Below are positions 2,590 to 15,021 of a stretch of DNA of 64,000 nucleotides, in pieces. Made by a program: the position numbers and the translations under genes. A model generated the notes under the pieces. The model searched no databases. It had not been told where the DNA came from and was given only the letters and a program-made list of their open reading frames with translations. Location: NCBI GenBank assembly GCA_021740845.1, contig JAIOYZ010000005.1, positions 3,693 to 67,692 of the forward strand, read 5' to 3'. Source of the stretch: Bacteroidia bacterium (GTDB lineage Bacteria > Bacteroidota > Bacteroidia > UKL13-3). The stretch's first letter is position 1. Every line of letters starts with the position of its first letter.

Positions 2590-3003
2590 ATGGGAACAGT
2601 ACATCAAACCAAAACCCAGCATATGGGTAAAATGGAATTTGATAGTGTTATCAATAACCATCATATTACGATTGATACGGTAGAAGCTGGTGGTGGCGAG
2701 AATCATGGCCCAAACCCAAAGCCACTTATGCTTAGTGCACTTGCTGGTTGCACCGGAATGGATGTTGTTTCTTTGCTCAATAAAATGCGTGCAGAATACA
2801 GCGATTTTTCCATTGATGTAGATGCTGATTTAAGCGATGAGCATCCAAGAATGTATACCGAAATTCGCGTTAAATACTTTATCAAAATAAACGATAGAGA
2901 GAAAATGGAAAAGGCGGTACGACTTTCAAAGGACCAATATTGCGGCGTTAGTGCTATGTTGAAAAAAGTTTGTCCGGTAGAATTTGAGATAAATTATTTG
3001 TAG
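2590..3003 (+). CDS. OsmC/Ohr family peroxiredoxin-like protein
   Basis: OsmC-like pattern PKPLMLSALAGCTGMDVV. Starts 2 bp after the rhodanese stop, so it is co-operonic. Confidence 0.7.
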   Translation: MGTVHQTKTQHMGKMEFDSVINNHHITIDTVEAGGGENHGPNPKPLMLSALAGCTGMDVVSLLNKMRAEYSDFSIDVDADLSDEHPRMYTEIRVKYFIKINDREKMEKAVRLSKDQYCGVSAMLKKVCPVEFEINYL

Positions 3004-3082
3004 GCTGTTTTTGGGTTTTGGGCTTTGGGGAAGGACATGGTTGTTGGTAAATAGTACTTTTTTGCGGGGTAGTTTTTGGGCG

Positions 3083-3130
3083 GGTAGTTTGTTTATTTCG
3101 TTTTGAACCGAGACAATTTGAAAATAGAAC
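3083..3130. repeat. partial copy of mosaic intergenic repeat, module A (ggtagtttgtttatttcgttttgaaccgagaca...)
   Basis: Shares about 40 bp with the 5' end of the element at 5329-5456. Confidence 0.6.
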
Positions 3131-3575
3131 CTTTATGGAGAATATAAATTTTAGACATTTTGTAAAAATAAAAAAAACACGCACGAAACAACTACAAAAA
3201 GTACCTTCATGGTACTAAATTAGGTTCAAAGCCTTCGAAAAAAACGAACTCCTCATTGAACAGGGGATCTCCTAAGCTGTTTTCTTATATTAAATATATG
3301 TTGTTTATTTATGTTCAATCAGATTTTATTTTTTTGTTGATTACCATTTCTTTGTGATGAAAGTACCAATTACAATTTGCAAATTTCATATAGGCATAAA
3401 AGAAAACCCAATTAACGATTGTTTTTATGGTTTGTCTTATAGAGCATTACTTTAAAAATCCAAAAAAATAATTTGAATATAATTGATTATCAAATTCCTT
3501 TTGAAAAGTTAAACTCATTTCATACTTTTATTGGACCTCAGTGATAAAAAAGAAATATTTTCGGGTCCTATTAAA

Positions 3576-5213
3576 ATGAATTTTATGCAATTATTTATGA
3601 ATCGTATTATAATTTTACTTCTTACATTAATTATTTTTCATTTCACTTCATGTGAAAATAATAGCAATAAAAAACAAAATATAAATTATTCGAAAATTGA
3701 AATAAAAAGAATAGTTTACTTGTGCAAAACCTGGGGTGCATTAAAATACTTAACTAGTAATACTAAATACAATAATATTGATTGGAATACAGAATTATAC
3801 GAGCAACTTTCTGAAAATCCAAATTTTTACTCCAATAACCAAATATTAGAAAAGGTATTAGTAAATTTAATAAGTAAAGCTGATGACGGAGAAAATAAAG
3901 TTGAAGAAAGGGCATGCAATTTTAATCTATATTGGGTAAATGATACTTCAATAGTAAATAAAAGCACGACAACTAAATTGTTGAAAATAATTAAAACGAA
4001 CCATGGTGTTATTAACAACCCAAATTTAGTATATGTTAATGGAGTTATAGATTTTACTGAAGAAAATAAAAAATTTTTGGATGAAGAATTACCAGAAATT
4101 AATTCGAAAATGGTAAATATTTTCAGGTATTGGAATATTATCAATTATTTTTTCCCTTATAAGAATTTAATGGATAGAAATTGGGATGAGGCTTTAAATG
4201 AATATATACCCAAAATATTAAATTCATTTTCTATTTCAGAATATCAATACAATTATCTTGAATTTATTTCTTTGTTAAGGGATGGCCATGGTTTTTCATT
4301 GTGTGACTACACCAAAACTTGGTATGATGACTTTGTTCCTAGTTTCAGCTTAGTAAATGGAAAAATAATTATCGAAAATAACCAAATTCAAACTTTGATA
4401 AATGGTGACTCAGTAATAATGATAAATGGAAAAACCATTGATAGTATTCAATTTTACCTCACAAAAATTTTCCCATCCTCCAATATTTCTTACACAAAAA
4501 AGAAACTTGAAAAGTTGATTTTTGATTTTGACACTACAAAAATTCTTGAATTAGAGATTATTAGAAATGGCTCGCCGAAGTCAATAAAAATTTCAAAAAT
4601 TGAAACATTTTCTAACGAAAAAAATTCAGATTACCCGCCATTTAAATACTATGGAAATATACTTTACTTAAATTATGGAATACTTAATCCAGTATTATTA
4701 GATAGTTTATTAAAAAGCATTTCGAAAAATGAACCAGAAATAATTATAGATTTAAGGGTTTATCCCAAAGAATATATGTTTAATGAAATTTTTGCAAATT
4801 TAGTTGTCACTTCCAAACCCTTTGTTTTGTTGAATTTAATTAATCCAAATTGTCCAGGAAACTTTACAAATTCTGAGATTTATAAAACCGAATCTTTAGG
4901 TGCAAAATTAAAACTTAAAAAATGTATTTTATTGGTTGATGAAAACACAATGAGTCATGGGGAGTTTTCTGCAATGTGTTTTCAAACATTACCTAACACT
5001 TATACAATTGGTAAACAAACTGCTGGAGCAGATGGGGATATTGTTGGAGTAAATATTTCAGGTGGAATAAGTACCTCCTTTTCAGGAATAGAAATTCTAT
5101 ATCCCGATAATACACCGACTCAAAGAAAAGGAGTAAAAATAGATAAATACTTTGATGGAAATAGCGATTCAACTATGATTCATGCAGCCATTAATTTTAT
5201 TAAACATCATTAA
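3576..5213 (+). CDS. S41-family (C-terminal processing / tricorn-like) peptidase lipoprotein, very AT-rich
   Basis: Signal peptide with lipobox FTSC when the start is taken at MNFMQLF. PDZ-like segment NGDSVIMINGKTIDS. C-terminal S41-like catalytic region LVDENTMSHGEFSAM ... TIGKQTAGADGDIV. Confidence 0.5.
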   Translation: MNFMQLFMNRIIILLLTLIIFHFTSCENNSNKKQNINYSKIEIKRIVYLCKTWGALKYLTSNTKYNNIDWNTELYEQLSENPNFYSNNQILEKVLVNLISKADDGENKVEERACNFNLYWVNDTSIVNKSTTTKLLKIIKTNHGVINNPNLVYVNGVIDFTEENKKFLDEELPEINSKMVNIFRYWNIINYFFPYKNLMDRNWDEALNEYIPKILNSFSISEYQYNYLEFISLLRDGHGFSLCDYTKTWYDDFVPSFSLVNGKIIIENNQIQTLINGDSVIMINGKTIDSIQFYLTKIFPSSNISYTKKKLEKLIFDFDTTKILELEIIRNGSPKSIKISKIETFSNEKNSDYPPFKYYGNILYLNYGILNPVLLDSLLKSISKNEPEIIIDLRVYPKEYMFNEIFANLVVTSKPFVLLNLINPNCPGNFTNSEIYKTESLGAKLKLKKCILLVDENTMSHGEFSAMCFQTLPNTYTIGKQTAGADGDIVGVNISGGISTSFSGIEILYPDNTPTQRKGVKIDKYFDGNSDSTMIHAAINFIKHH

Positions 5214-5328
5214 TTCTGTTATAATCTAAATTAATTTGGCTTCTTATTTAGCAAAAAATCTATCAACAACTGAGTGAGTGGCTTATCTATGCCACAAAGC
5301 AAATTGAATCATAGTTAGTCCTTTATCT

Positions 5329-5456
5329 GGTAGTTTTTTTATTTCGGTTTGAACCGAGACAAGTTAGAGAGTAGAAGAAAAAAGCTGAGTGAGGTTTCTG
5401 AGTAGAAAAGGGCGGATCCTGAGTGAAATGTCATTTTTCGTTTACTCTGCTAAAAG
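5329..5456. repeat. mosaic intergenic REP/MITE-like element, full module A (~110 bp)
   Basis: Sequence atttcggtttgaaccgagacaagttagagagtagaag aaaaaagctgagtg...tttttcgtttactctg, highly similar to 8098-8200. Abuts the stop codon of a minus-strand gene. Confidence 0.75.
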
Positions 5457-5466
5457 TTAGCGAAGG

Positions 5467-6396
5467 TTATTCAATTTCAAAATGCTTCTTAATACGCAAC
5501 ATTCTTAACGTGTTCCATTTACTGGGTTTTCCTGCTTTCTCCATGATGACGTGTACTTGTCCTGAATGTGCTGCATGCAAATTCCATGATCCATCCTTAT
5601 TCTGTTTTTTATTCAAATGGGCCAATGCCTCAGTCATTCTATCGTCCCATTTAATTCCTGCGTATTGAAAATAATCCATAGCTCTAAGAATGTCATATTT
5701 CCATCTGCATGGATAGCTTAACTTTAAGAAGTTTTTATCAATTATTTCTCCTGTGTGGTCTGATAAAAATAATCTGTGCATTAAGATAAATTCTATAGCA
5801 GTTTTAATAGCAACAGAAATTTCTTTTTTTCTATAAAAGAATCCCGTTTTCTGAAATTCGGTGAATCCTTCGAGAACTGAAATAGTAGAATGCAATGAGC
5901 TATGTTTTGCTCCACTTCTTGTTGACCTGCAATTAAATCCTCCATCCGGCATAATCTCATTAAGAATACTGTCTATAATGGAATGTAACTTCTTTTCAGG
6001 TGTTTTGAAATAGGAAGCATAATTCAAAAACATTCCATTTACACAAACGTCACTATGCTGCGATGTGGATGGCCCCAATTGAATACCTCCATCATCTGCT
6101 AGGTTATTTTGTAAGACCAGTTCTATTGTCTCTTGTACCATCTCATTGTTTGCTGGAAGATTTAAATTGCGAAGGTCAAGTAAAGTGTAATGGGTGGAAA
6201 TCCATTTGGGTTGATAGAATCTATCGCCCCAATGTCCGTTTGAATTACGTTTTGATAAAATTTTGGTACCCCATCCTTCATTTGGTATTCGGTTTTGAAG
6301 TTTCTTTTTGTCAGAACCTAACAAATCACGCCAAACTTGGTATTGGATAGAGACATCTCCTTCCAATAACCAGTCTATGATTTGTTGATTGTTCAT
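5467..6396 (-). CDS. prenyltransferase / squalene-cyclase-repeat (alpha-alpha toroid) protein
   Basis: Four to five repeats resembling the QW / PFTB motif: NGHWGD, DDGGIQ, PDGGFN, KDGSWN. Confidence 0.45.
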   Translation of the reverse strand: MNNQQIIDWLLEGDVSIQYQVWRDLLGSDKKKLQNRIPNEGWGTKILSKRNSNGHWGDRFYQPKWISTHYTLLDLRNLNLPANNEMVQETIELVLQNNLADDGGIQLGPSTSQHSDVCVNGMFLNYASYFKTPEKKLHSIIDSILNEIMPDGGFNCRSTRSGAKHSSLHSTISVLEGFTEFQKTGFFYRKKEISVAIKTAIEFILMHRLFLSDHTGEIIDKNFLKLSYPCRWKYDILRAMDYFQYAGIKWDDRMTEALAHLNKKQNKDGSWNLHAAHSGQVHVIMEKAGKPSKWNTLRMLRIKKHFEIE

Positions 6397-6451
6397 TTTC
6401 TTTTTGAAATTTAATTTTGAATATACTACTCAAGAATAGATGTGGCATACA

Positions 6452-6748
6452 TTATTGTTTCCATCTTTCAAGATTTGGAATTGACCTTGTAGCCAACCAT
6501 GCAAAGAAAACGTTCATTCCGTCTTTCTTCATTTCTTGTATACAAAACTTTTGCATTTTTTTGGCGGTATCAATCTCTGGAGGGGTTAAAAAAGATCCAT
6601 TTTCATAACACATGGAACAGTACTTTTTACTAATCGTTCCGTCTTTCTCAGTTCCTCCACCTTTTTTATCTTTCTTTAATGGGAAACCACAGCTTTGGCA
6701 AAATTTATATACTTTCATTTTATTATTTATTTCATTGAAGGTTGTCAT
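6452..6748 (-). CDS. putative zinc-ribbon domain protein
   Basis: Two CxxC pairs, FCQSCGFPL ... YCSMCYENG. Length is 98 aa. Confidence 0.5.
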   Translation of the reverse strand: MTTFNEINNKMKVYKFCQSCGFPLKKDKKGGGTEKDGTISKKYCSMCYENGSFLTPPEIDTAKKMQKFCIQEMKKDGMNVFFAWLATRSIPNLERWKQ

Positions 6749-6769
6749 TCGTAATAATTACTGCAAACC

Positions 6770-6850
6770 TCAGTCATACTAAAAACTAAGTTTTGCAACT
6801 CGAAAATAAGATATTTTTTATGCGATTTGGCGATGGCTAGAAAAATAGTT
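6770..6850. repeat. ~80-bp direct repeat (copy A), shared 5' leader module
   Basis: About 92 percent identical to 7811-7891. Lies immediately upstream of the start of a minus-strand gene. Confidence 0.8.
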
Positions 6851-7090
6851 TAGTTAATTGTTATTAAAGAAAATTGGGCGGCTTAATCCTTCCAATCGCC
6901 AAAAGAAAATACGGTTTTCTTATTAAAGCTAAATTCTTAAAAGGCAAACCTTATAGGCCTAGGCTAAAGATTTTACCCACAAAATTAATCGGCCGAAAAG
7001 CCCCAACCCTGAACGTAGTTCCACTCAACACAGGGTTCAAAGTGTGTCCTCCGGCCGCTTCGAACCCTTATCTGTTAGCAGAAGTTTTTT

Positions 7091-7795
7091 TTAAGGAACT
7101 TCATATTCATAAACTACTTGCGTCAATTTATTATCTACAAATTCCATTTCGGCTTTGAATTCAAGTCCATCTATAATGAAAGGTCTTAATCCCCCAACTT
7201 TATTCGATTCTCCATTCTCAAGCATAACAAATTGCCACACCAATAATTTTTTGTTTTCTAATTGTTCAGCAGTATTTGGAACTCCAAATATTCCCTTAAC
7301 TTCATCAATTGACAAACCAAGCTTTATTCCTTTTTTAGTTTGAATTGTGTCAATTTCTATTGTCTTTTTGTGATTGTTAATTTGAATTCCTTCAAATTGA
7401 AGTAGACTTAATAAATTCGAATCAGTGATTTCCGTTTCAGTTAAAATTGCTGTTGTTATTGAATAGTCGGTGTATGGAACAAAATATAATTTACTCTTTC
7501 CATTCGAGCTAATAAACCACTTAGAACCATCTTCTTTAAATTGATTGAATTGAGAAGTATTTAGATTAAAGAAGTCAGGTTGTATTCCCTTAGTGTAGGT
7601 TGGTTTGGTTACTTGAATTTCTAATGATTCATCACTTTCAAAACTTTTCTCTTCAGCTTTTTCTTCTGTTTTTTCTAATACTTGGCTTTCAATTTGAATT
7701 ACAGAAACATTCTTATCCGATTCGTTTTCAGAAGAATTATTCTGCCTGCAAGAAATCAGGCTAATAGCTATTAATATGTATATAAGGTCTTTCAT
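7091..7795 (-). CDS. hypothetical lipoprotein
   Basis: Signal peptide plus lipobox LISC. Acidic, low-complexity N-terminal region. Confidence 0.5.
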   Translation of the reverse strand: MKDLIYILIAISLISCRQNNSSENESDKNVSVIQIESQVLEKTEEKAEEKSFESDESLEIQVTKPTYTKGIQPDFFNLNTSQFNQFKEDGSKWFISSNGKSKLYFVPYTDYSITTAILTETEITDSNLLSLLQFEGIQINNHKKTIEIDTIQTKKGIKLGLSIDEVKGIFGVPNTAEQLENKKLLVWQFVMLENGESNKVGGLRPFIIDGLEFKAEMEFVDNKLTQVVYEYEVP

Positions 7796-7810
7796 TTAAT
7801 TACCGCCAAC

Positions 7811-7891
7811 TTCAGTCTACCAAAAACTAAGTTTTTCAACTCGAAAATAAGATATTTTTTATGCGATATGGCGATGGCTTGAAAAATAGTT
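7811..7891. repeat. ~80-bp direct repeat (copy B), shared 5' leader module
   Basis: Matches 6770-6850. Lies immediately upstream of the start of lipoprotein gene 7091-7795. Confidence 0.8.
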
Positions 7892-8039
7892 GATATAAAA
7901 ATTTATAAAATTTAAGTGGCTTAAAATGAAGGAATAGAAAGTGTAGCAAAGCTAAAACACAGAAAGCTAATCCATTTATAATAAGCAATACAATTCTAAA
8001 TCTAAAAAAGGCAAGGATAAAAAACAATGTAGCTCTATT

Positions 8040-8200
8040 AAAGCAGCTTACTTTATACCCAAAAGGATGTGACCTTTTCAAAACTTGGTTTCAGTCAATT
8101 TCGTTTTGAACTGAGACAAGTTTGAGAGTAAAATAAAAAAGCTGAGTGTGGTTCCTGAGTGAAATCGAAGGGAACGGCCCTTTTTCGTTTACTCTGTTAA
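8040..8200. repeat. mosaic intergenic repeat, module B followed by module A
   Basis: Module B (aaagcagcttactttat.cccaaaaggatgtgaccttttcaaaacttggtttcagtcaa) recurs at 9285-9363. Module A matches 5329-5456 and contains a small hairpin aagggaacggccctt followed by a T-run. Confidence 0.75.
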
Positions 8201-8203
8201 ATT

Positions 8204-8629
8204 TTAACGGCTGGCAGATATAGTTTTCACAAAATTATCTGGTGTCATAACCGCCAAAGAACTATTTTTAAAATCTTTCAAATTTCGTGTGAGTATCAAT
8301 TCTATTTCCTTATTTGTTTCGGCAGAATAATTTTGCAATGCATCCTCAAAATCTTTAAATTTTGAATTTAAAGCATGTATTACAGTATATCGGTCTATAA
8401 CTAGAATTTCGGTTATTGAAACTAGCATTTTCAGATGGTCTATCACTTTTTCATGCTTCTCTGTTTGCCGTAATAAATAGTATACATTACCAATAATTAC
8501 CGGTGTAATATAGCCAGTGATTTTTTTGGATTCGCATAGAGAAAAAACTTTTGCGGCATTGTCCGAAAATGGTTTTCTATCAAAAAAGAAATCTAAAATT
8601 ACATCTGTATCAATCAGTATTTTTTGCAT
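8204..8629 (-). CDS. PIN-domain toxin (VapC-like)
   Basis: N-terminal ILIDTDVILDFF acidic PIN signature. Length is 141 aa. Lies directly downstream of a small antitoxin-like gene. Confidence 0.7.
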   Translation of the reverse strand: MQKILIDTDVILDFFFDRKPFSDNAAKVFSLCESKKITGYITPVIIGNVYYLLRQTEKHEKVIDHLKMLVSITEILVIDRYTVIHALNSKFKDFEDALQNYSAETNKEIELILTRNLKDFKNSSLAVMTPDNFVKTISASR

Positions 8630-8632
8630 TGC

Positions 8633-8881
8633 CTATAAGTATTTCTCTGACAATTTTTTTGTCAACTCTTTTTTATAGTCAAAATTCGTTGGTGCTGTGA
8701 ATGAACCTTTAAGCGACTTTACAATCGGCGTCAATTCTATTTCCTCTGAGTTCGATTCTTTAGTTATTGCACGAAGATAATTTTCTATCAAATTCGAAAG
8801 ACTTCTACCTTTTCCTTTGGCGTATTTTTTTGCGTTTTCAATAACGCTTTCATCTATTGTAAGTGTAAGCTTAGTATTCAT
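8633..8881 (-). CDS. type II antitoxin-like small protein
   Basis: Length is 82 aa. Separated by 3 bp from the PIN gene. Confidence 0.5.
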   Translation of the reverse strand: MNTKLTLTIDESVIENAKKYAKGKGRSLSNLIENYLRAITKESNSEEIELTPIVKSLKGSFTAPTNFDYKKELTKKLSEKYL

Positions 8882-8919
8882 AATTTCTTGTTCAGAACAA
8901 AATTACTAAAGAATATATT

Positions 8920-8949
8920 CACGTGCAAAAATAATTTTAAGTACACGTG
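8920..8949. promoter_or_regulatory. pair of CACGTG palindromes 18 bp apart, candidate TA operator
   Basis: Sequence cacgtg-N18-cacgtg, 40-70 bp upstream of the antitoxin start. Confidence 0.3.
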
Positions 8950-9284
8950 TTGACTGCTTGCCGCTAATCGGTTCACGCAAGAGAGTTTATGAACCCAGAA
9001 TTATTTCAATTCATAGGCGTTCATGATTATTAATTCACCCTTAGGTTCTCAATACCTGTTCCGCATTTTTGGGAGAACCGTGTTTGATCCCGCACCTGAG
9101 GGACACACTGCTCTTCTTGATTCATCACGAATGTATTTATTCATCATGGATTTACCAATAAGTGGTGAGGAAAAATTAATTGGGTTCCATTTAAATTTTG
9201 AAACTAGAAGATTGATTGAGGAAACAAAGGAAGCAATACAATTTAGGCACAAAAAAAGACAAGTATAAACAAAGAAGCCCTGTA

Positions 9285-9363
9285 AAGCAGCTTACTTTAT
9301 TCCCAAAAGGATGTGACCTTTTCAAAACTTGGTTTCAGTCAATTTCGTTTTGAACCGAGACAT
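9285..9363. repeat. mosaic intergenic repeat, module B plus truncated module A
   Basis: Near-identical to 8040-8118. Confidence 0.75.
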
Positions 9364-9511
9364 CTTTAAGAAACGCTCAATAAACTAGCAAAATAGCGTC
9401 ATGGCAAATTGCCTTTACTTCCAAAATTTTGGTTCAAACCAAACCTTAATATTGCTTGGTATTTCTAAAATTTTCTAAATACCATTTTTTGGTTCAAACC
9501 GAACCCAAGAC

Positions 9512-10093
9512 TTATTTATTGCTGCGCAACTTGGCTCTTACTTTACTTAGAAACTCAGGCGAAATACCCAAATAAGCCGCTATTAAATGTTGTGGAACAC
9601 GCTGAGGAATACTTGGATATTTACTTATAAACTCCAAATAACGCTCTTCTGCTGGCTTTGAAATATTGCCTATCAAACGGTTCATAAGCGACTCTAAACT
9701 CTTTTGAACCAATATGCGGAAATACCTTTCAAAAACGGGATATTTAGTTAGCAATTGTGCCTTAGAATTAAATCCTAGAAATAGGAATTCGCAATCTTCA
9801 ATGGCCTGAATAAATAGCTGAGATGGCTTTTGTTCGGTAAAACTTCCAATATCACTTACCCACCAATCTTCTTCTGGAAACGCCAAATCTACCTCAAATC
9901 CTTTCTCATTTAAATAATAAATACGGGCAATGCCTTTAACTAAATATGCTTCAAAAAGGCAAACTTCACCTGCTTGCAATAAGAACTCTTTTTTCTTAAT
10001 TTTCTTAGGAACTAAAACACTATGAAGAAAATCTATTTCCTCTTGGTTAAAGGCAATTCGCTTGGCAATATTTTTATCTAATTCCTGAAACAA
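9512..10093 (-). CDS. Crp/Fnr family transcriptional regulator
   Basis: cNMP-binding beta-roll followed by a C-terminal HTH, IAAYLGISPEFLSKVR. Confidence 0.8.
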   Translation of the reverse strand: MFQELDKNIAKRIAFNQEEIDFLHSVLVPKKIKKKEFLLQAGEVCLFEAYLVKGIARIYYLNEKGFEVDLAFPEEDWWVSDIGSFTEQKPSQLFIQAIEDCEFLFLGFNSKAQLLTKYPVFERYFRILVQKSLESLMNRLIGNISKPAEERYLEFISKYPSIPQRVPQHLIAAYLGISPEFLSKVRAKLRSNK

Positions 10094-14806: not shown

Positions 14807-15021
14807 GCGGCGAAAATTTTTGGTCTTTGGGTGTTGGTCTTTAGTCTTTGGTAGAATTGCTTAGGTGAATGTTTTGGATCAAACCTAAAAGTTGTGGGGA
14901 AGAAATAAAAAGTTGACTTTTGGAGGGAATAAAAAACTTTATGCACGAACTTTTAACCTTCTCCTTTAATAATATTACCAGAATCAATTGAAGAATATTT
15001 TGAAGTAAGCAAAGTCAATAA

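Follow-up and report, generated by a model that had tools for sequence, protein, structure and literature searches.

The segment considered here lies in a 64-kb window (the whole stretch of DNA that was analysed) from an uncultured 'Bacteroidia bacterium', between a crp-like gene (9512-10093) and osmC (2590-3003), and contains two neighbouring genes, one for a lipoprotein and one for a Zn-ribbon protein, that are each preceded by a copy of the same block of DNA, the leader (Table 1). The content of the segment, small open reading frames (ORFs) of unassigned function on the same strand together with a toxin-antitoxin pair, is typical of cassette arrays (see PMC8618304 for array content). The initial annotation described the leader as a direct repeat of about 92 percent identity upstream of two minus-strand genes; its coordinates and identity value were essentially right, the true repeat being somewhat longer. 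Using BLAST, with the contigs L001 and L002, which are identical to the window, against the window (the numbers L001 to L030 denote the other contigs and loci compared with it) and in a self-comparison of the region, 6755-6850 aligns with 7797-7891 at 91.7% identity over 96 aligned nucleotides (nt) with one gap (E ~1e-33). A repeat search of the window returns an ungapped alignment of 6777-6868 with 7818-7909 at 87%, and with a four-copy profile the alignment extends over 6899-6743 and 7936-7786, the similarity beyond the BLAST core being weaker. For a 58-nt core pattern the window has exactly two matches, compared to none in 100 shuffles. Both copies lie on the minus strand, as was annotated, which is the sense strand of the genes 3' of them. 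The repeat is wholly non-coding and the genes flanking it are unrelated to each other, which argues against a tandem duplication containing genes; the larger segmental duplication including coding sequence that had been named as an alternative is not seen, since similarity in the self-comparison is limited to the two BLAST intervals. The arrangement is shared, at 99.99-100% identity, by two further metagenome-assembled genomes, and its 4439-6825 part is spanned by a Logan contig, so that misassembly is disfavoured.

Table 1. Features of the variable segment and their positions in the window.
Feature	Position	Strand	Remarks
Strain-variable segment	3112-9470		between crp-like gene and osmC
Leader copy 2 (module D)	7797-7936	minus	block of ~140 nt, ends ...GACTGAA/GTT, directly 5' of the lipoprotein cassette
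Leader copy 1 (module D)	6755-6899	minus	ends ...GACTGAG/GTT, 5' of the Zn-ribbon/309-aa gene pair
Junction GTT, copy 2	7808-7810	minus	L014/L025 lipoprotein-cassette homology starts exactly at G 7810
Junction GTT, copy 1 (by analogy)	6766-6768	minus	end of conservation among leader copies
Lipoprotein cassette core	7087-7810	minus	gene 7091-7795, 234 aa, lipobox LISC, no Pfam match
R''-like inverse core	7071-7083	minus	TTCTGCTAAC, just 3' of the lipoprotein stop
GC-rich hairpin	6990-7056	minus	terminator-like stem and T-run (7008-6991), between lipoprotein gene and leader copy 1
Zn_ribbon_2 gene	6452-6718	minus	88 aa (98-aa ORF possible from 6748); first gene after leader copy 1
309-aa gene	5467-6396	minus	function not assigned; travels with the Zn-ribbon gene
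DUF6364 antitoxin-like and PIN_3 (VapC-like) toxin pair	8204-8881	minus	upstream of leader copy 2; kept with the leader in L005
Module A stem-loop	8119-8209	minus	starts at the PIN stop codon, ATTTAAC-AGAGTAAA...TTTACTCT; second copy 5362-5462 after the 309-aa gene
Core T (21 nt)	9342-9362	minus	TGTCTCGGTTCAAAACGAAAT; near the Crp-side edge of the variable segment; 100% identical to 3095-3115
Core T next to osmC	3095-3115	minus	corresponds to the native copy retained in empty-site strains

Five copies of the leader are known in total, four close and one distant. A metagenome scan, in which L004 and L005 were the only true copies, placed the leader 5' of a PadR-like gene (L004) and of the gene for a membrane protein of 306 amino acids (aa) (L005), and a profile search of fetched loci placed the distant copy 5' of a small gene with a PH_gly_zipper domain (PF27000) in L012. 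The five downstream genes are unrelated, and all copies have the same orientation, pointing at the gene that follows. When the copies are aligned, conservation covers about 135-140 nt and stops in all five at ...GACTGAnGTT; at and after this point they read GTTGGCG, GTTTGCA, GTTAGCA, GTTGTAC and GTTATAG, followed by unrelated DNA. A crossover point at G/TT (a slash marks the joint here and below) with differing DNA to its right in the different copies is the pattern by which integron cassettes (core GTTRRRY) are recognized, and the five copies show it. In L012 only the terminal 21 nt adjacent to the junction are well kept (20/21) and the promoter-like middle has diverged; these 21 nt pair with an inverted copy 181 nt upstream, in an AAC...GTT arrangement as in attC. 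The GTT of copy 2 is separated by 12 nt from the ATG of the lipoprotein gene (7795), and that of copy 1 by 17 nt from the ATG of the 98-aa Zn-ribbon ORF (6748) or by 47 nt from the start at 6718. The latter start is the most likely one: NCBI calls the gene from it, it gives the 88-aa length that most of the listed cluster members have, and both the Pfam match and the DNA homology to relatives begin there.

Further copies, for which the initial annotation had recommended a search of the genome, are very few: the 64-kb window contains only the two, and three lie in other metagenomes, each copy being followed by an unrelated gene. A 27-mer from the repeat had no match in 185,579 species-representative genomes, the terminal 21-mer had none in viral contigs, and BLAST of the leader against plasmids and phages gave no match. 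Near homologues of the PIN toxin (L009-L012) only the weak copy of L012 was found, and near homologues of the L013 recombinase described below (L017-L022) no copy was found. A 20-mer from the most conserved part had three matches, in Acidobacteria and Moraxella, which were dismissed as chance since their flanks are unrelated.

The joint is defined most precisely at copy 2. The lipoprotein cassette is 97.9% identical at the DNA level to L014:5557-6280 and L025:832-1555, a value above the 87-91% found between core genes of the sister strains examined, and the homology of both loci to the window is confined to 7810-7087, from the G of the leader's GTT to four bases past the stop codon. Upstream of the GTT the three sequences are unrelated (window, ...GACTGAA; L014, ...CCTGGAAAC; L025, ...GCTGCAAAAC), and in L014 and L025 the cassette starts with GTTGGCGG behind two different attC arms. 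Judged from these alignments, the GTT of copy 2 is proven to be a cassette junction, and the lipoprotein gene is, on the same sequence comparison, a mobile cassette of the integron type. By analogy with copy 2, the GTT of copy 1 is probably a junction as well. The two leader copies bracket a unit of 1042 nt that holds the lipoprotein gene; the suggestion of the initial annotation that they enclose an exchangeable cassette of about 1 kb is strongly supported, with the gene present in two other arrays, its boundary at the GTT and variation among strains.

At its 3' end the lipoprotein gene is followed in the window by an R''-like inverse core (Table 1), and in L014 and L025 by a canonical attC, composed of CCGCCAAC, a short hairpin with imperfect pairing and the following GTT. 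Similarity between the window and L014 past the stop codon runs through the inverse core (AAAAACTtCtGCtAAC vs AAAAACTaCcGCcAAC) and breaks right after AAC. One lipoprotein ORF is in this way combined with two different 3' sites (7071-7090 in the window, L014:6275-6300). The switch immediately after the AAC of R'' suggests, as far as the two sequences can tell, an exchange at R''. It hints that the attC of an ORF can be swapped at the inverse core, which would point to natural recombination on the top strand or on the R'' side.

L014 is a textbook cassette array of 15 units bounded by ...AAAC/GTTRRRY. The first 10 nt of the cassettes (GTTRRRY...) have an inverse match of 8-10/10 in all 15, located 128-175 nt before the 3' end in 14 of them, and the ORFs are small, co-oriented and without Pfam matches. 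An identical attC arm precedes at least five different ORFs, and a shared leader in front of unrelated neighbours is therefore normal for such arrays. The lipoprotein cassette of L025 contains an inverse core complementary to its own 5' end, and an extended 5' consensus, GTT-N6-(C/T)AATT, is common to L014 and the Bacteroidota cassette pool from which the cassettes behind the leader would have come. Even the canonical sites of L014 had no attC-like match in Rfam searches at E<=5. The same array contains eight copies of a 409-nt ORF-less cassette (L014:643-2700, 3488, 6326 and 8500; five in tandem) with the 5' sequence GTTAGTAATT and a 175-nt attC, which lies directly 5' of several ORF cassettes and is a candidate promoter or spacer cassette.

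The content of the segment differs between strains, and the comparison of strains that the initial annotation had recommended revealed cassette presence and absence, alternative cassettes and a recombinase. L015 and L023, with core genes 87-90% identical to those of the window, have an empty site in which 3112-9470 is replaced by about 127 nt, osmC lying about 300 nt after the crp-like gene. In L005 the toxin-antitoxin pair is retained together with the complete 400-nt spacer that includes the leader (91% identity), and the 306-aa gene stands where the window has those for the lipoprotein, the Zn-ribbon protein, the 309-aa protein and the S41 peptidase. Behind its leader, the cassette of L005 starts with GTTAGCAGGC and its stop codon is directly followed by GCCTGCTAAAC; when RYYYAAC is compared with its own 5' end, this cassette gives an R''/R' match of 9/10 plus one indel. 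L013 diverges from the window at 9414, and a tyrosine recombinase gene sits there, next to the crp-like gene.

We lean towards the view that the leader represents the right-hand, conserved arm of a recombination site of the integron type, situated in a cassette cluster without integrase, and the shared sequence is best read as an arm of a recombination site and not as a shared regulatory RNA. This reading starts from direct observations: the sequence is repeated, copy 2 has a junction at its GTT, the lipoprotein cassette is mobile and the locus varies between strains. The arm would be attI-like, or would represent the 3' part (right half) of an unusually long, decayed attC of the L012 type, to which cassettes from a Bacteroidota cassette pool would have been joined by site-specific crossover at the terminal G/TT. 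An enzyme of the IntI type, encoded elsewhere or since lost, may have made these joints. Crossover at this position would cause unrelated genes (those for the lipoprotein, the Zn-ribbon/309-aa pair, the 306-aa membrane protein and the PadR regulator) to share their upstream sequence up to the GTT, and two consecutive cassettes, each preceded by the arm, would yield the direct repeat and the bracketed 1042-nt unit. The arm may also supply transcription signals to promoterless cassettes, as there are terminator-like hairpins upstream of both leader copies in the window, which suggest that the downstream genes need their own promoter. A further proposal, which we consider rather unlikely, is that the locus represents a new kind of integron site in Bacteroidota: a largely non-palindromic attI-like arm of ~140 nt, or the right-hand half of an attC of great length (interior 180-350 nt), that is reiterated in the array, serves as a repeated entry point for cassettes of the canonical attC pool and doubles as their promoter.

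Clusters of attC sites without an integrase are known as CALINs. With these and with sedentary chromosomal integrons (e.g., the Vibrio cholerae superintegron repeats) the window has in common the co-oriented small ORFs, mostly without assigned function, the toxin-antitoxin module, the near-identical sequence before consecutive genes, the G/TT junction followed by RRRY-like sequence, the occurrence of a cassette in other arrays, the strain-variable content and the lack of an integrase nearby. Its block differs from theirs in having neither an R''-L'' partner nor a hairpin, in its weak or absent R''/R' complementarity, and in the inter-ORF spans of 312-394 nt compared to an attC of ~57-141 nt. 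Like an attI, the block is non-palindromic, ends in GTT and has different cassettes inserted behind it, and its left side (the toxin-antitoxin pair and ~400 nt) is kept between the window and L005 whereas the right-hand cassette differs.

Junction chemistry and cassette content fit the integron family. What does not fit is that hairpin and integrase are missing, that the spacers are long and that a non-palindromic arm is reiterated, and several results weigh against the recombination-site arm that we favour. From its sequence the leader is not a canonical attC: the R''-L''/L'-R' palindrome of ~57-141 nt that forms the attC hairpin is not found in the window copies, and the two inter-ORF spans (312 and 394 nt, folded as stretches of 331 and 410 nt) show no end-to-end pairing. 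To our knowledge, spans of this length exceed any known attC. Searches for a complementary left arm in the window gave scores of 15 and 19 against shuffle means of 14.6 and 15.3, compared to a score of 41 against a mean of 14.4 for the 28-nt left arm of L012. In the R''/R' comparison the lipoprotein unit of the window reaches only a weak match of 7/10, and the Zn-ribbon/309-aa unit has no match downstream of its ORFs. An attI is normally present once per integron; here the block occurs twice in one array, no intI is adjacent to it or present elsewhere in the window, and the L012 copy has an attC-like inverted partner arm. The Zn-ribbon/309-aa pair is 78% identical in L026-L030, where homology covers 6719-5466 only, i.e. 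coding DNA, so that these relatives are uninformative about the putative junction at copy 1. Only five copies of the leader are known, and tblastn detected no recombinase in the 64-kb window.

The recombinase of L013 does not fill this gap. It was rejected as an integron integrase since the insertion specific to IntI is missing, which also counts against an integron-type site: the protein has Phage_int_SAM_4 and Phage_integrase domains and remains below the cut-offs of TIGR02249 and NF040815 (XerA/integron integrase; integron integrase), and a 78%-identical full-length relative has archaeal XerA as its best match and aligns to IntI4 (PDB 2a3v) in two pieces, with 20 residues compared to 62 in IntI4. 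The gene (L013:3156-4235), situated exactly at the hotspot, encodes an Xer-like tyrosine recombinase with an N-terminal extension of ~110 aa, and its family is very large in Bacteroidota. An enzyme of this type may serve the outer frame of the hotspot, which is formed by core T. In this respect the locus resembles the genomic islands of tyrosine recombinases (attL/attR), with a 6.3-kb segment that has perfect 21-nt direct repeats near both ends, empty sites and the Xer-like recombinase in L013; the resemblance concerns core T, the outer frame, and not the leader, the junction of which is a GTT of the integron type.

Among the other explanations, the one that holds up best takes the leader for a portable promoter or 5'-untranslated-region module that co-regulates the downstream gene via a shared operator (e.g., the direct repeat ATCGC-N3-ATCGC) or a 5' hairpin. 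We assign it a low probability as the explanation of the repeat; it is compatible with a recombination-site arm, as in Pc/attI or ORF-less promoter cassettes. All five copies face the downstream gene, the GTTs of the window are 12 and 47 nt away from start codons, and terminator-like hairpins lie upstream of both copies. Bacteroidota sigma-A promoters consist of a -7 box, TAnnTTTG, with a -33 TTTG ~19-21 nt upstream; L004 has an exact -7 box, TATTTTTG, where the other copies have TATTTTCG, but the window copies contain only boxes with one mismatch (TATTTTCG, TAGTTTTT and TATTTTTC) and no -33 TTTG at the right spacing. In a scan for sigma-70 promoters, with a type of scanner that does not fit Bacteroidota, sites were no more frequent than in shuffles. 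A terminal 8-bp hairpin with a bulged G (AAC-N-TAGT pairing with ACT-G-A-N'-GTT) is 95% paired in the five sequences and has one covarying pair, but the covariation is not significant, 54 of 500 shuffles reaching its score, the overall fold is unremarkable (z -0.8 to -1.0) and no Rfam family is matched. ORF-less cassettes with promoter activity are documented (Tansirichaiya et al., 2019, as cited in PMC8618304), and like these, the leader is a repeated non-coding unit immediately 5' of several cassette ORFs (compare the 409-nt unit of L014). Unlike the L014 unit with its canonical ends and 175-nt attC, however, the window block has no recognizable 5' boundary or attC of its own, and its promoter is putative. 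In L012 it is the junction-proximal 21 nt that are kept and the middle that has diverged, and a promoter module alone leaves unexplained why homology of a mobile cassette starts exactly at the GTT. The shared operator or cis-acting RNA leader through which the initial annotation suggested the two genes to be co-regulated receives no positive support from the fold, Rfam, the -7 box or the conservation in L012.

Improbable, and in our view slightly more so than the promoter module, is that the repeat is a functionless by-product of homologous (Campbell-type) integration or of unequal crossing-over in the hotspot. Every inserted module in the locus is flanked by direct repeats of 90-145 nt, repeats of 85-100% identity flank the toxin-antitoxin module (repeats 7983-8127 and 9231-9371) and larger units (repeats 5341-5462 and 8098-8209, and 3095-3115 and 9342-9362), and the difference between the window and L005 has the form of a block exchange between shared flanks, with the leader on one side and modules A and T on the other. 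However, homologous exchange gives no precise G/TT joint to a cassette that has canonical attC boundaries elsewhere, the five different partners joined at one nucleotide point to a preferred site, and the last 21 nt are retained by a distant genome in which the interior has diverged. We regard it as very unlikely that the leader is the end of a miniature inverted-repeat transposable element or the remnant of an insertion sequence with an outward-facing promoter. L012 has 21-bp inverted ends (AACGTCAGACCGTCTAAAAAC ... GTTTTTAGACGGACTGACGTT) spanning 223 nt, but a target-site duplication was not seen there, a second inverted end is missing from the copies of the window, L004 and L005, the block occurs twice in 64 kb and, with the patterns tried, not in the 185,579 genomes, plasmids, phages and viral contigs, and the end of a transposon would not fall on an integron cassette's native boundary. 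Scarcely credible, finally, is a structured cis-acting RNA leader (riboswitch or attenuator) common to the two genes: there is conserved non-coding sequence directly 5' of them, but folding of the leader as a transcript, as recommended in the initial annotation, gave no significant structure, its minimum free energy being no better than that of shuffles on both strands (z -0.8 to +0.3), the alifold covariation term of +0.5 kcal/mol indicates no net covariation, Rfam gave no match at the gathering threshold in the whole window or at E<=5 in 5200-9600 and related loci, and the genes that follow have unrelated functions.

Proteobacterial integrons are well understood. Bacteroidota have different promoters and do not depend on Shine-Dalgarno sequences. 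Surveys of complete genomes found almost no integrons in Bacteroidetes (PMC9024848), and integrons have nonetheless been reported for the phylum Bacteroidota (PMC8618304). With the recombination-site arm as the favoured reading, the locus would be a Bacteroidia chromosome that holds cassettes of the canonical attC pool behind a conserved site without hairpin and without an integrase nearby, for which strains with an empty site, with an alternative cassette and with a recombinase are all on hand for comparison. If the site is active, it would broaden the range of integron insertion sites, and it offers a concrete substrate for studies of cassette capture and expression in a phylum with different promoters. 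It also carries a warning for annotation, as a common upstream leader before unrelated genes can be a recombination scar and not the signal of a regulon.

Other features of the segment were also noted. The Zn_ribbon_2 protein (6452-6718) belongs to a cluster at 90% identity with 218 members, the named ones from separate groups of Bacteroidota (Chitinophagaceae, Saprospiraceae and Chryseotalea), a breadth that reflects either unusually strong conservation or horizontal spread. The hairpin at 6990-7056 has CGGCCG...CGGCCG around AACCCTG...CAGGGTT in AT-rich surroundings and no Rfam match. Besides the two copies of core T in Table 1 there are two more, at 8098-8118 and 5341-5361 (four in total), and their flanks are reassorted: in the order 3095, 5341, 8098 and 9342 the left flank is unique, module A, module A and unique, and the right flank is of type II, II, I and I, which looks, from the arrangement of these flanks, like a tandem accretion of modules at one att-like core. 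Core T together with module B makes up direct repeats of ~140 nt (7983-8127 and 9231-9371; 85% identity, 1244 nt apart) that flank the toxin-antitoxin pair. The combination of the left arm of module A with the right arm of the leader as one long attC was rejected, as inspection by eye found pairing only of AAC with GTT and of a short A/T run.

Several smaller repeats were observed at the edges of the segment and beyond. Heptamer repeats near the osmC end differ by strain, being of the CCCAAAA type in the window (3009-3040) and in L005:2770-2840 and AGCCAAA in L015:4250-4290. A 40-nt part of the empty-site spacer (L015:4050-4089) matches 14878-14917, near tRNA genes of the window, at 95%, and is a small dispersed intergenic element. 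The 10-bp palindrome GGTTYRAACC (often TTCGGTTTGAACCGAAA) occurs 25 times in the 64 kb compared to 0.2 expected (as a 12-mer with one mismatch), for example at 1469, 9431, 9491, 12230, 30875, 35188, 57049, 58935 and 62873, mostly in short intergenic spacers by the starts or ends of genes; there are 10 in 12 kb of the sister strain L015 and none in L014, and candidate roles are a site for a regulator, an element resembling a terminator or a signal of the uptake type. At 1751-1950 the window contains a tandem tetranucleotide array of ~200 nt, (GTAA/GTAT)n.

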